25,803 nt of DNA from a virus (taxonomy: Duplodnaviria; Heunggongvirae; Uroviricota; Caudoviricetes). Positions 15,717 through 19,396 of the stretch are shown here, piece by piece (the first letter of the stretch is position 1; every line of letters starts with the position of its first letter). The DNA is taken from the IMG/VR virus record IMGVR_UViG_3300045988_092979, positions 1 to 25,803 of that record, one strand, 5' to 3'. The notes below the pieces were generated by a model. It was given only the letters and a program-made list of their open reading frames with translations. It was not told the DNA's origin and did no database searches. Made by a program: the position numbers and the translations under genes.

Positions 15717-16320
15717 TTCGCGACTGCTGCCGACCGGCTCATCACCGCTTGAAGTCGCCGCCGCAAGAGCCTGTGCGGAAATTGAAAAAACGCCGGTCAG
15801 TATTCGTGAGCTGTGGAACCCGGATACCTGTCCGGCAAATCTGCTGCCGTGGCTGGCGTGGTCATTTTCGGTTGACCGCTGGGATGATAAGTGGCCGGAA
15901 GCGACAAAACGCGCTGTTATCCGCGATGCGTATTTCATTCACTGCCATAAGGGCACTATTGGTGCGATTCGCCGTGTGGTGGAGCCGCTCGGCTATCTGA
16001 TTGAGGTGAGGGAGTGGTGGCAGCTCAACGAGGAGCCGGGGACGTTCCGCATCGTTGTTGGCGTGCTTGAGCAGGGTATTACCGAGGAAATGTATCAGGA
16101 GCTGGAGCGTCTCGTTGCTGATGCAAAACCTGCAAGCCGCCATCTGACGGGACTGGCTATCAGTTTAAGTACAACCGGCAACATTTTTGCCGGTGCAGGA
16201 TGCTATCACGGCGACGCCCTGACGGTTTATCCCTACACCCCGGAGGCCATTATTGTCGGAGGGGATTATTTCCCGGCCTCGGCCATTCATTTAATTGATA
16301 ACCTGAGAGTAAACGCATGA
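15709..16320 (+). CDS. I: baseplate/tail protein I
   Basis: Follows J with an 8-nt overlap. 203 aa from this ATG (P2 gpI is smaller by recall, so the true start may be downstream). Confidence 0.75.
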   Translation: MSDSRLLPTGSSPLEVAAARACAEIEKTPVSIRELWNPDTCPANLLPWLAWSFSVDRWDDKWPEATKRAVIRDAYFIHCHKGTIGAIRRVVEPLGYLIEVREWWQLNEEPGTFRIVVGVLEQGITEEMYQELERLVADAKPASRHLTGLAISLSTTGNIFAGAGCYHGDALTVYPYTPEAIIVGGDYFPASAIHLIDNLRVNA

Positions 16321-17834
16321 CAGTGAAATACTACGCCATTCTGACTAATCAGGGCGCAGCACGGCTGGCTAACGCGACGATGCTCGGCAGTAAGCTGAAT
16401 CTGACGCAAATGGCCGTTGGTGATGCGAATGGTGTCTTGCCGACACCAGACCCGGCACAGACAAAACTGATTAACCAGAAACGCATCGCGCCGCTGAATC
16501 TTCTGAGTGTTGACCCGAACAACCAGAGCCAGATTATTGCGGAGCAAATCATCCCTGAGAACGAGGGCGGATTCTGGATCCGTGAGATTGGGCTTTATGA
16601 TGATGAAGGCGTACTCATTGCGGTGGCGAACTGCCCGGAAACGTACAAACCGCAGTTGCAGGAAGGCAGCGGTCGTACCCAGACTATCCGCATGATTCTG
16701 GTTGTCACGAATACCGAAGCTATCACGCTGAAAATCGACCCGTCGGTGGTACTGGCGACCCGTAAATACGTGGATGATGAAGTCCTGGAATTAAGGCTGT
16801 ATGTGGATGACCAGATGAGAAACCACATTGCCGCACAGGATCCTCATACCCAGTATGCACAGAAACATAATCCGACATTTACCGGAGAACCAAAAGCGCC
16901 GACGCCTGCCGCAGGAAATAACACCACGCGGATTGCGACCACTGAGTTTGTTCAGGCCGCTATTACCGCTCTGATTAACGGTGCGCCAGCCACGCTGGAC
17001 ACACTGAAAGAAATTGCCGCAGCCATTAACAATGACCCGAAATTCAGTACCACCATTAACAATGCGCTGTCAGGTAAGCAGCCACTGGATGAGACGCTGA
17101 CTCATTTGAGTGGGAAGGATGTTGCCGGTCTTCTTGCATACCTTGGTATTAAAGACGCATCAACAACACAGGTGGGTTTAGTCCGGTTAACCTCATCGCG
17201 GGTATCGGGTGCAGAGGATATTGCAGCCACAGCTAATGCTGTCGCGCAAAACTATACGGACATAAAATCTTTGCAAAACAAAACTCAGGATTCAACTACG
17301 ACACAGAAAGGAATTGTTCAACTTACATCATCAAGGGTATCCGAATCTGAAACGCTTGCTGCAACAGCAAAAGCGGCAGCGATGAATTATGCGGATATTG
17401 TAGCTCTGCAAGGCAAGACTAATGATGCAACCACTACAAACAAGGGAATTATCCGCGTATCTGATTCCAGAACATCAACAGAATCTGGTGTTGCTGCATC
17501 ATCACTTGCTGCATCACAAAACTATTCAGATATGAAAGGGTTGTTTGGTCAATGCGGAATGAAATCTAGAAATCTCGGTGTCGTATACACCAACAGCCAG
17601 TCTTTCGCCATATTTGTAAGCGTCAATGCGGTGCTGTCTGACGGTAGTTCATTTCTGAGCGCCAACGTTAATGTGGATGGTAATTCGGCTAATTTTCGCG
17701 GCTCTCAGACAACAAATCTTGCAGGGCAAAGAGCAACTATCGCATTCATGGTTCCTGCCGGTGCGACCTATATTGTGCAGCAGTTTTCAGGAACAGTGTC
17801 AGATGTTACCTGGGTAGAGGTGGATAAAAAATGA
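16317..17834 (+). CDS. H: tail fibre protein H; constant part to 17144, currently expressed variable C-terminal part 17145-17834
   Basis: 505 aa; N-terminal two-thirds in the canonical H position; the distal part contains three tandem ~45-aa repeats and is AT-rich. A hix-like crossover site lies in frame at 17131-17156. Confidence 0.85.
   Translation: MTVKYYAILTNQGAARLANATMLGSKLNLTQMAVGDANGVLPTPDPAQTKLINQKRIAPLNLLSVDPNNQSQIIAEQIIPENEGGFWIREIGLYDDEGVLIAVANCPETYKPQLQEGSGRTQTIRMILVVTNTEAITLKIDPSVVLATRKYVDDEVLELRLYVDDQMRNHIAAQDPHTQYAQKHNPTFTGEPKAPTPAAGNNTTRIATTEFVQAAITALINGAPATLDTLKEIAAAINNDPKFSTTINNALSGKQPLDETLTHLSGKDVAGLLAYLGIKDASTTQVGLVRLTSSRVSGAEDIAATANAVAQNYTDIKSLQNKTQDSTTTQKGIVQLTSSRVSESETLAATAKAAAMNYADIVALQGKTNDATTTNKGIIRVSDSRTSTESGVAASSLAASQNYSDMKGLFGQCGMKSRNLGVVYTNSQSFAIFVSVNAVLSDGSSFLSANVNVDGNSANFRGSQTTNLAGQRATIAFMVPAGATYIVQQFSGTVSDVTWVEVDKK
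17131..17156. other. hix/gix-like 26-bp inversion crossover site (left), inside H
   Basis: TTCTTGCATACC-TT-GGTATTAAAGAC: 12-bp half-sites around a 2-bp core; left half matches the Salmonella hixL half-site TTCTTGAAAACC at 10/12 (from memory). Core TT is complementary to core AA of the right site. Confidence 0.6.
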
Positions 17835-18199
17835 TAACAATGATGAAGTATTACAAAGATGAAAATAACGTCGTATATGCCTACGATGCGTATGGCACAC
17901 AGGATGCTTTTATCAAAGAAGGGCTTGTGCCAATCACCAGAAGTGAGGCTATGGCAATTATTAATCCCCCACCGACTCATGAACAACTCATCCAGGCTGC
18001 TGAAAATGAGCGACAGCGATTACTGTCCGCCGCTGATGCAATTATGCTCGACTGGCGCACAGAGCTGATGCTGGGTGAAATCAGCGATGCCAACAGAGCT
18101 AAACTTTCGGCGTGGCTTTTATATAAGAATCAGGTTAAGGCTGTTGATGTAACAACCGACCCTGAGCATGTTAACTGGCCTGTCATCCCGGAACTTTAG
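17831..18199 (+). CDS. G: tail fibre assembly chaperone (Tfa)
   Basis: 122 aa immediately after H with ATGA overlap; ends in a WPxxP-type motif (NWPVIPEL) typical of Tfa proteins. AT-rich. Confidence 0.7.
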   Translation: MITMMKYYKDENNVVYAYDAYGTQDAFIKEGLVPITRSEAMAIINPPPTHEQLIQAAENERQRLLSAADAIMLDWRTELMLGEISDANRAKLSAWLLYKNQVKAVDVTTDPEHVNWPVIPEL

Positions 18200-18205
18200 A
18201 CCATA

Positions 18206-18250
18206 CTGGTCTTGCTACATCAATGCGCATCAGCAAGACCAGCTATTTTC
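18206..18250 (+). terminator. stem-loop/terminator after the tail-fibre assembly gene
   Basis: 11-bp perfect inverted repeat CTGGTCTTGCT / AGCAAGACCAG (18206-18216 and 18232-18242) with a 15-nt loop, followed by CTATTTTC. Confidence 0.5.
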
Positions 18251-18301
18251 AAACTAAGCAACATAGCCCTCCGCTACTCCTCCTGTTCGAAACGAACGTT
18301 T

Positions 18302-18733
18302 TCATGCCGCCCTTACGATATAATTAAACGCAATGTTACGAGGACGAATGGTTACATAATTAACCCCATCACCTCGTGAAGGCCCTGCAAATGAAAAACG
18401 GGAAAATCCTGGTTGGTTAGAAACAATTTGGTCATAGTTATTGATTGAATGACCAGACCCAATGTCGAAATTACCTCCGTAATGAGAAAAACTTGTACCA
18501 TCCTGCCCTGAAAGCAGGGTACGTCCCGCATCAATCCCGCGCCCATCATCCCAGCCACGGATAAATTCACCGCGTAAATCCGGTAATTTATTGGTGGGGT
18601 AGGCTTTTGCCAGTTTGGGATACATTTCAGAAGAAAATGCTGCACCATTGCATTTTAGCCAGCCCGTTGGTGGTGTTTCTAAGGGCCACGGAACGGGCAC
18701 ACCAACAGGCAGTGCAGAGCCTTCCCCCAAACC
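18302..18733 (-). CDS. silent, start-less alternative tail-fibre C-terminal cassette in inverted orientation
   Basis: Translation (…GWLKCNGAAFSSEMYPKLAKAYPTNKLPDLRGEFIRGWDDGRGID…) is a classic P2 H / Mu S-type fibre C-terminus. Its 5' end coincides with the right crossover site, so the track ATG at 18775 is not a real start. Confidence 0.7.
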   Translation of the reverse strand, partial: GLGEGSALPVGVPVPWPLETPPTGWLKCNGAAFSSEMYPKLAKAYPTNKLPDLRGEFIRGWDDGRGIDAGRTLLSGQDGTSFSHYGGNFDIGSGHSINNYDQIVSNQPGFSRFSFAGPSRGDGVNYVTIRPRNIAFNYIVRAA

Positions 18734-18747
18734 AACGTTTATGAAAA
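18722..18747. other. hix/gix-like 26-bp inversion crossover site (right)
   Basis: TTCCCCCAAACC-AA-CGTTTATGAAAA: 19/26 identity to hixL TTCTTGAAAACCAAGGTTTTTGATAA (from memory), conserved AAACC..GTTT inner positions, 56 bp upstream of the invertase start. Confidence 0.6.
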
Positions 18748-18802
18748 TGCAGAGACAACGGGTAACTGGCATCATCTCCGGTTTTTATTCAGGGGGATGC
18801 TC

Positions 18803-19396
18803 ATGCTTATTGGCTATGTACGCGTGTCAACAAATGACCAGAACACGGAATTGCAGCGTAACGCGCTGGAGTGCGCAGGATGTGAGCTGATTTTTGAGGA
18901 TAAAATCAGCGGCACTAAGTCCGACCGACCGGGACTGAAAAAACTGCTCAGGACATTATCGGAGGGGGATACACTGGTGGTCTGGAAGCTGGACAGGCTG
19001 GGGCGTAGTATGCGGCATCTGGTCATTCTGGTTGAGGAGCTGCGCGAACGCGGCGTTAATTTTCGCAGCCTGACGGATGCTATTGATACCAGCACGCCGA
19101 TGGGGCGTTTTTTCTTTCATGTGATGGGTGCCCTGGCTGAAATGGAACGAGAACTCATTGTCGAGCGGACACGCGCCGGACTGGAAGCGACCAGAGCTAA
19201 AGGTCGTATTGGTGGCAGACGTCCGAAGCTCACCGCGAGTGAGTGGGAACAGGCAGGACGGTTGCTGGCTGCGGGTGAATCACGTCAACGCGTGGCGCTG
19301 ATTTTTGATATTGGCCTGTCCACGCTCTATAAAAAATTCCCCTCATCAGCGACAAAGAATAAATTGTGTCATCCCTTAGCCAACCGGGACAAATAG
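18803..19396 (+). CDS. site-specific DNA invertase, serine recombinase of the Hin/Gin/Cin/Pin family
   Basis: N-terminus MLIGYVRVSTNDQ with the catalytic serine, and near colinear similarity to Gin as I recall it (…LVVWKLDRLGRSM…GRFFFHVMGALAEMERELI…GRIGGRRPKL…). GGGGG RBS upstream; the track ORF starts two codons earlier. Confidence 0.9.
   Translation: MLIGYVRVSTNDQNTELQRNALECAGCELIFEDKISGTKSDRPGLKKLLRTLSEGDTLVVWKLDRLGRSMRHLVILVEELRERGVNFRSLTDAIDTSTPMGRFFFHVMGALAEMERELIVERTRAGLEATRAKGRIGGRRPKLTASEWEQAGRLLAAGESRQRVALIFDIGLSTLYKKFPSSATKNKLCHPLANRDK

Follow-up and report, generated by a model that had tools for sequence, protein, structure and literature searches.

What are the three near-copies of one peptide, and the unfamiliar C-terminus behind them, that close the tail fibre gene H in IMG/VR virus record IMGVR_UViG_3300045988_092979 (Duplodnaviria; Heunggongvirae; Uroviricota; Caudoviricetes), and by what route could they have come to sit on a P2-type fibre? 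We addressed these questions in the window, by which we mean the whole stretch of 25,803 nucleotides (nt), positions 1 to 25,803 of that record. They lie in what is probably the exchangeable distal half of a P2-like Escherichia coli prophage's tail fibre. Within it, the family of the fibre tip is the one part not yet catalogued, and it is uncharacterised; the rest of the system is of known kind. H divides as follows, in positions of the window and amino acids (aa) of the protein.

16317..17834, plus strand: gene H for the tail fibre (505 aa), as now expressed; an open reading frame with PF12571 at aa 1-150 and three PF03406 units.
16317..17142, plus strand: constant part of H (aa 1-276), a baseplate-attachment domain and one 'PTFTG...LDTLKEIAAAINNDP' unit.
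17157..17288, plus strand: PF03406 repeat 1 (aa 281-324).
17289..17423, plus strand: PF03406 repeat 2 (aa 325-369), which aligns to residues 109-164 of Mu fibre protein S (PDB 5yvq/8ju3 chains).
17424..17552, plus strand: PF03406 repeat 3 (aa 370-412), the most diverged unit.
17553..17834, plus strand: tip domain of 93 aa and the stop codon, a predicted 8-stranded jelly-roll and the presumed receptor-binding head.

The repeats themselves are not in doubt. H holds three tandem units of 43-45 residues at aa 281-412 (nt 17157-17552), and the three peptides quoted in a first-pass annotation made from the sequence alone are all present verbatim, its first unit starting one codon later (17160 against 17157). 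The periodicity it had claimed was borne out when H was compared with itself: the two strongest off-diagonal signals fell at offsets 45 and 90 (windowed BLOSUM62 sums of 99 and 68; the next was 32). Local alignment scores between pairs of units were 129, 98 and 90 against shuffled means of 23-25 (standard deviation about 4.6; z = 14.6-21.9), with protein identities of 27/43, 19/43 and 17/39 (63, 44 and 44%). The units had also been described as diverged at the nucleotide level and AT-rich, and they are both: DNA identity between units is 55-63%, and their guanine-plus-cytosine (GC) content is 0.437 compared with 0.521 in the constant part of H, or 0.303 compared with 0.571 at third codon positions (GC3). 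Neither Tandem Repeats Finder nor a DNA-level repeat search detected the three units or the crossover sites described below, which are too diverged or too short for such tools. The repeat in H is visible at the protein level only.

Searches of the protein place the units in PF03406 (Phage_fiber_2, 'phage tail fibre repeat'), which matched H in three separate stretches at 51.5 bits (cut-off 22, E 7.5e-14). The score lies above the family's gathering threshold, and the match consists of tandem units of about 40-45 residues, with a period of 45, in a fibre protein that also carries PF12571. The same family recurs elsewhere. Units 2-3 of H align to residues 109-194 of Mu fibre protein S (PDB chains 5yvq, 8ju3), and canonical P2 H has two PF03406 units in a proximal position, at about aa 168-255, right after its N-terminal domain. 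The 'Pf2' element of collagen-like fibre proteins from enterohaemorrhagic E. coli (EHEC) prophages is the PF03406 family too (PMC3368898). The earlier suggestion that the repeats are something unusual therefore did not hold, as both P2 H, with its two units, and Mu S carry them. Judged by its family assignment, the PF03406 unit is a classical, long-catalogued fibre building block, unusual here only in its distal position just before the tip.

The C-terminus that follows is another matter. It had been described as unlike the fibre tip encoded in a silent cassette nearby (cassette B, below), and this stands: when aa 413-505 were compared with cassette B, no match was significant (best E 0.68). 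BLASTP against canonical P2 H gave no significant alignment for these residues either. The tip, alone or as a 21-sequence profile, had no sequence match in Pfam, NCBIfam or the PDB; neither the tip nor 21 aligned relatives had a Pfam match, C1q (PF00386) and TNF (PF00229) included, at E values up to 1. A tblastn search of 50,697 phage records returned only the Edwardsiella phages GF-2, Edno5 and MSW-3, at 32-35% identity. Larger collections were more productive. A single-sequence search of 1.84 billion representatives found 31 clusters, in 30 of which the domain lies at the extreme C-terminus (the remaining cluster, P0137, is an unrelated repeat protein with an internal match), and a profile search reached at least 681 clusters, most of them metagenomic and none with a Pfam domain. 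The conserved signature reads W.(N/D)V..SR..G.TYTN.TG.PI.V.V...F.VP.G.TY.V...W.EL.

Structure prediction gave the tip a class. Modelled by AlphaFold2 with the profile alignment, it forms, with good confidence, an 8-stranded sandwich (predicted local distance difference test (pLDDT) 87.1; predicted template modelling score (pTM) 0.77). The model's matches in BFVD are phage tail fibre C-termini, one of them labelled 'C1q-like', and Foldseek against the PDB returned weak HA-head matches only. Set against C1q and TNF proteins, the predicted model has their jelly-roll β-sandwich and the sequence lacks a match to either family. We read this as a compact head of the TNF/C1q class, an assignment at the level of the predicted fold and not of family membership. 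The tip's place in the fibre and the roles of comparable heads in other proteins lead us to infer that it would trimerise and bind a receptor.

The expressed variable half of H, which we call cassette A, is not confined to P2-like fibres. Searching with aa 277-505 retrieved 169 protein clusters, many of them 96-100% identical over the whole query, with mutually unrelated N-termini. In E. coli, Salmonella and Citrobacter the cassette stands behind fibre N-termini of at least six unrelated kinds, and all fusions are joined between ..(L/V)G and IK(D/E)ASTT.. Its hosts include P2-like prophages, Mu/E217-like elements (among them an E217-like tail module, L011) and a lambdoid remnant. In strain E2348/69 the cassette sits in a prophage with baseplate J and DUF2612 genes, which is not P2, and DNA identity between this prophage and the window starts exactly at ACCTTGGTATTAAA (17140-), inside the crossover core; upstream of it the two are unrelated. 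The GC content of the window also falls where the cassette starts. The first-pass annotation's proposal of a horizontally acquired receptor-binding module is thus upheld by the unrelated N-termini and by a DNA breakpoint within the crossover core, and the apparent joint of horizontal transfer is the invertase crossover site itself. We note that the E2348/69 locus (L002:3667-5251, in an enteropathogenic E. coli) lies next to tRNA-Arg/intS, that its fibre gene is annotated as a pseudogene, and that a truncated helix-turn-helix (HTH) gene follows tfa where an invertase would be expected.

That crossover site belongs to a larger arrangement, the remaining parts of which are as follows.

17131..17156, no strand: left crossover site, TTCTTGCATACC TT GGTATTAAAGAC, read from sequence, inside H (codons L-A-Y-L-G-I-K-D).
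17831..18199, plus strand: tail fibre assembly protein Tfa (PF02413), 122 aa, part of the expressed cassette.
18200..18301, no strand: spacer separating the convergent cassettes; it contains a hairpin and a terminator-like site.
18302..18735, minus strand: silent cassette B (PF07484 Collar), an alternative Collar-type tip (about 143 aa) that lacks an accompanying Tfa gene.
18722..18747, no strand: right crossover site, TTCCCCCAAACC AA CGTTTATGAAAA, read from sequence.
18797..19396, plus strand: serine DNA invertase of the Hin/Gin/Cin type (PF00239 and PF02796).

The invertase is identified by a resolvase domain (PF00239, E 9.8e-52) and by HTH_7 (PF02796, E 1.1e-12). Both candidate crossover sites are imperfect dyads, the left one with 9/12 internal dyad symmetry, and because their central dinucleotides, TT and AA, are complementary, the two sites are inverted. 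The left site has 16-18/26 matches to what we take to be the gix/hix consensus, and the right site 18-19/26 to the presumed gix/hix/cix consensus. All cassette junctions among the relatives fall at the left site. Inverting 17143-18735 in silico fused aa 1-276 of H in frame to the Collar-type tip, yielding an open H' of 419 aa, and set cassette A behind the leader MMPVTRCLCIFINVG. The first of these products has a counterpart in nature: the junction of the H constant part with the Collar tip is contiguous in 208 complete E. coli genomes. The second is represented by one database protein, P0001 (MMPVSCYLCIFLNVG followed by IKDASTT..., 243 aa), which is cassette A read from the silent position; it is the sole such document and comes from a draft contig. 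The locus thus combines what defines the Din family, namely an adjacent serine invertase, two inverted 26-bp sites of which one lies inside the fibre gene, and a reading frame that is kept after inversion. By these testable features of the sequence, the locus counts as a P2-like phage's version of the Din-type invertible tail-fibre switch, and in this strain it would presumably invert.

The silent side of the switch is encoded by a Collar-domain open reading frame of 157 aa (18302-18775, minus strand), whose cassette matches PF07484 Collar at E 1.1e-14 as well as phrog_523/3100. A stop 35 positions before the end of phrog_523 had suggested that cassette B is a truncated P2-type tip. We rejected this reading because the cassette reaches the ends of phrog_3100, 20472 and 2631, and because cassettes lacking Tfa occur beside an invertase in another locus, L007, where Tfa-less Collar cassettes are stacked next to it. 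The two orientations are asymmetric, the expressed cassette having its own Tfa and the silent Collar-type cassette none, and after inversion the sole Tfa gene would point away from the late operon. Three Peduovirus loci (L004, L005 and L006) have one Tfa per orientation.

The number of repeats in front of the tip is variable. Three units are the commonest state among the retrieved proteins that carry this tip (76 proteins), followed by two (55) and one (8). The two-unit forms lack exactly one 45-residue unit (alignment A2), and in one-unit forms (P0112, P0116, P0120) the head of unit 1 is joined to the tail of unit 3 where AQNY meets SDM. Units 1 and 3 of the window share CAAAACTAT at 17247-17255 and 17517-17525, in register and exactly 270 nt apart, and this position is likely to be the deletion joint of the single-repeat forms. 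Repeat number would then change by in-register recombination between units. A further relative, in E. coli 23AR0998 (L001:1956-3695), encodes a P2-like H of 579 aa with the same three-repeat cassette. The constant part of that H contains two copies of a unit about 74 aa long ('PTxTG..NTTxIATTxFV..APAxLDTLxELAAAxxNDPNF'), and the duplication points to a second kind of fibre module with variable copy number.

The chaperone gene is part of the same package. The tfa start codon overlaps the H stop (ATGA, 17831-17834), and its product belongs to Caudo_TAP (PF02413; 67.8 bits, cut-off 22.1, E 1.4e-18, aa 45-121) and to phrog_188; Caudo_TAP covers the C-terminal 77 residues, with only about 44 residues before it. 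Tfa travels with the cassette in relatives and is found on 225 contigs, H on 9. In the E217-like module (L011:3001-4298), a tip allele (P0105) only about 55% identical to that of the window has behind it a Tfa that matches the window's Tfa at 98% identity. Given this pairing, we rejected the idea that the Tfa N-terminus co-varies with the tip allele. A near-identical Tfa beside a diverged tip implies that Tfa presumably recognises conserved features of the tip class, and the diverged tip positions are candidates for receptor contact. One chaperone seems to serve diverged tips, which is consistent with the 225 Tfa contigs against 9 for H. Tip variation beside a constant Tfa is, like the lack of a Tfa in cassette B, a lesser curiosity of the system. 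In published descriptions of Mu Tfa and Pam3 gp25, the N-terminal fibre-binding domain varies whereas the C-terminal trimerising domain is conserved; in Pam3, the Tfa-like chaperone clasps a TNF-like fibre domain (PMC9608196).

Taken as a working whole, these parts suggest how such a fibre could operate. In the trimeric fibre, the repeats most likely make up a distal shaft built in segments, which would keep the tip at a distance from the constant proximal part. The tip is most likely a TNF/C1q-like trimeric jelly-roll head in contact with a host surface receptor, and Tfa most likely drives trimerisation and folding of the distal part. Inversion of 17143-18735 would replace the expressed cassette with the Collar-type tip and so switch host range, and the same crossover site would have been the joint at which the cassette passed between unrelated phages. 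The number of repeats, one to three in close relatives, would be altered by in-register recombination.

Several observations weigh against this scheme. In an AlphaFold2 monomer of aa 277-505, pLDDT stayed under 50 throughout the repeats. The two crossover sites are alike at only 13-14 of 26 positions, and they were found by inspection and assigned by their position, their frame, the relatives' junctions and comparison with consensus sequences; a loose palindrome search with AAACCNNGGTTT, allowing 2 mismatches, gave 20 matches against 11.9 expected and serves as a pointer only. The flipped right-hand junction, with cassette A beside the window's invertase, was absent from the complete E. coli genomes searched. 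Finally, the tip has no close relative in sequenced phage isolates among the 50,697 phage records, and no receptor is known for it. Given the low pLDDT of the repeat region, we infer the distal shaft, which is plausible, from other evidence: the family's known occurrence in fibre stalks, the better conservation of the units than of the tip, and their variable number. The same model gave a weak hint of helix in the second half of each repeat, which we did not use as evidence.

Which part of the cassette touches the host is the point on which other explanations diverge from the scheme above. Tfa might be retained on the mature fibre, as is reported for Tfa proteins of Mu and of the P2 type, and act as the main receptor-binding element, leaving the jelly-roll tip mainly as a platform for trimerisation or docking. 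Mu Tfa is indeed described, in a summary (PMC9608196) and in a citation of North & Davidson 2021 (in PMC11915804), as staying in the mature phage and aiding host recognition, and Tfa always accompanies the cassette. The pairing of a tip allele about 55% identical with a 98% identical Tfa runs the other way, since a tip that varies while Tfa stays constant is the pattern expected if the tip carries specificity; moreover, the window's Tfa is short (122 aa), with some 44 residues ahead of its conserved C-terminal part. That Tfa is the main receptor-binding element we regard as improbable. It is somewhat less probable still that the PF03406 units are themselves ligand-binding modules, for surface glycans for example, so that three copies would confer multivalency and not length. 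Such a role would suit repeats that lie in the exchangeable, host-range-determining half of the fibre and differ in number among relatives. However, in cassettes whose tips have diverged the units themselves show much stronger conservation than the tip does (alignment A2), the same repeat occurs in the proximal, non-variable part of P2 H and in Mu S, and fibres with a single hybrid unit retain an intact reading frame.

It could also be asked whether the locus works at all, or is a frozen or decaying remnant with a dead switch, in which cassette B lost its Tfa by deletion and one orientation is non-functional. Cassette B does lack a Tfa gene, whereas pro483, the P2-like phage of strain T22 and MET_P1 have Tfa genes for both orientations; the two crossover sites match each other poorly; and some relatives of the cassette are rearranged remnants (the P0095 fusion, the E2348/69 pseudogene and a fragment in strain S1). 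Yet the reading frames of H, Tfa, cassette B and the invertase are each intact over their full length, cassette B extends to the end of its phrog_3100, 20472 and 2631 profiles, Tfa-less Collar cassettes are stacked by an invertase in L007 as well, and fusions of the H constant part to Collar are the expressed form in the 208 complete genomes. Decay is accordingly the explanation to which we give the least weight, and we think it very unlikely.

More tentatively, the two less familiar elements may belong together: the tip would represent a large family of compact TNF/C1q-like heads outside curated libraries, and the repeat number of one to three would be a device for tuning length. We offer this joint reading as a possibility that we would not yet favour over its negation. 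If it were true, fibre reach would be matched to the depth of the host surface layer by the number of repeats. Tail fibres capped by such heads are spread across phages of many bacterial groups, and in enterobacterial prophages one generic short Tfa appears to fold alleles only about 55% identical. The locus also provides a worked example of how host range can be packaged, with spacer repeats, head and chaperone in one cassette bounded by an invertase site, and for the engineering of P2-type phages or tailocin-like particles the cassette boundary between ..LG and IKDASTT.. offers a fusion point already proven in nature. Neither the tip, which lacks a family model and a solved structure, nor a tuning of reach by repeat number would overturn current understanding.

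The surroundings of the fibre gene are conventional. The window represents the late region of an E. coli prophage of the P2-like (Peduovirus) type, in which baseplate genes V, W, J and I are followed by H, tfa, the convergent 157-aa open reading frame, the serine invertase, and the sheath and tube genes. The order H, tfa, reversed cassette, invertase, FI in pro483, the P2-like phage of strain T22 and MET_P1_103_31 is as in the window, and the place of the invertase between the fibre cassettes and FI is common to pro483 and other Peduovirus records. Databases already list this very H protein, as the E. coli 'phage tail protein' EKH3742759.1, on 9 contigs. Its PF12571 tail-collar fibre N-terminal domain (aa 1-150) matches at E 1.4e-62, aa 211-271 align to the tail collar fibre gp4 in PDB 9d93, and nt 1-753 of the gene are 98.4% identical to H of a P2-like phage. 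Similarity at the DNA level to other P2-like H genes stops at nt 753, about 70 nt short of the crossover site, so the last 25 'constant' residues (17070-17142, aa 252-276) vary among Peduovirus fibres. In the spacer, a hairpin with a perfect 11-bp stem, CTGGTCTTGCT...AGCAAGACCAG (about 18208-18243), and a terminator-like site at 18284-18298 could mark the end of the late transcript in the present orientation.

Among known invertible systems, the closest parallels are the Din-family segments Mu G/Gin, P1 C/Cin, e14 P/Pin and p15B Min, together with P2-like counterparts such as pro483. With these the window shares a serine invertase beside convergent fibre C-termini, a crossover site inside the fibre gene, a constant N-terminal part with alternative C-terminal parts, and a Tfa gene within the invertible segment. 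Whereas Mu, P1 and the Peduovirus records compared have a Tfa for each orientation, the window has only one, and its cassettes set three PF03406 units, a jelly-roll tip and a short Tfa on one side against a Tfa-less Collar tip on the other. The repeats belong to the same family as those of P2 H, Mu S and the EHEC fibres, but in the window their place is on the distal side of the crossover site, where they belong to the exchangeable cassette and immediately precede the tip; their signature, ...SSRVS.(S/A)E..AATA.A...NY.DI..LQ.KT.D, differs from the ...SSATNSTSETLAATPKAVK of P2 and Mu.

For the tip, we compared TNF/C1q-like heads from the C1q head and the TNF ligand APRIL to the C-terminal domain of BclA of Bacillus, the fibre head Bd2133 of Bdellovibrio, XepA of PBSX and gp24 of the cyanophage Pam3. 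At about 93 residues the tip is smaller than C1q and TNF domains, which span about 130-150, and it is known only as a monomer prediction.

The last comparison is with canonical P2. P2 gpH is 669 aa long, as the first-pass annotation had stated correctly (NC_001895, 12734..14743), but the shortness of the 505-aa H beside it is unremarkable, given lengths of 399, 445, 471 and 499 aa in related Peduovirus records and 579 aa in an E. coli P2-like prophage. H of the window has the same PF12571 N-terminal domain (42% identity over aa 1-258) and shares with P2 gpH/gpG the 'PTxTG...LDTLxELAAAxxNDPNF' unit, the repeat family and a downstream Caudo_TAP chaperone. P2 has no invertase and no alternative cassette, Z/fun filling the slot, and its H goes on to a Gp34_trimer domain and ends in a different tip. 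The order of the shared parts also differs: in P2 H the N-terminal domain is followed by two PF03406 units and then the 'PTxTG...' unit, whereas in the window it is followed by the 'PTFTG...' unit, the crossover site, three PF03406 units and the tip.

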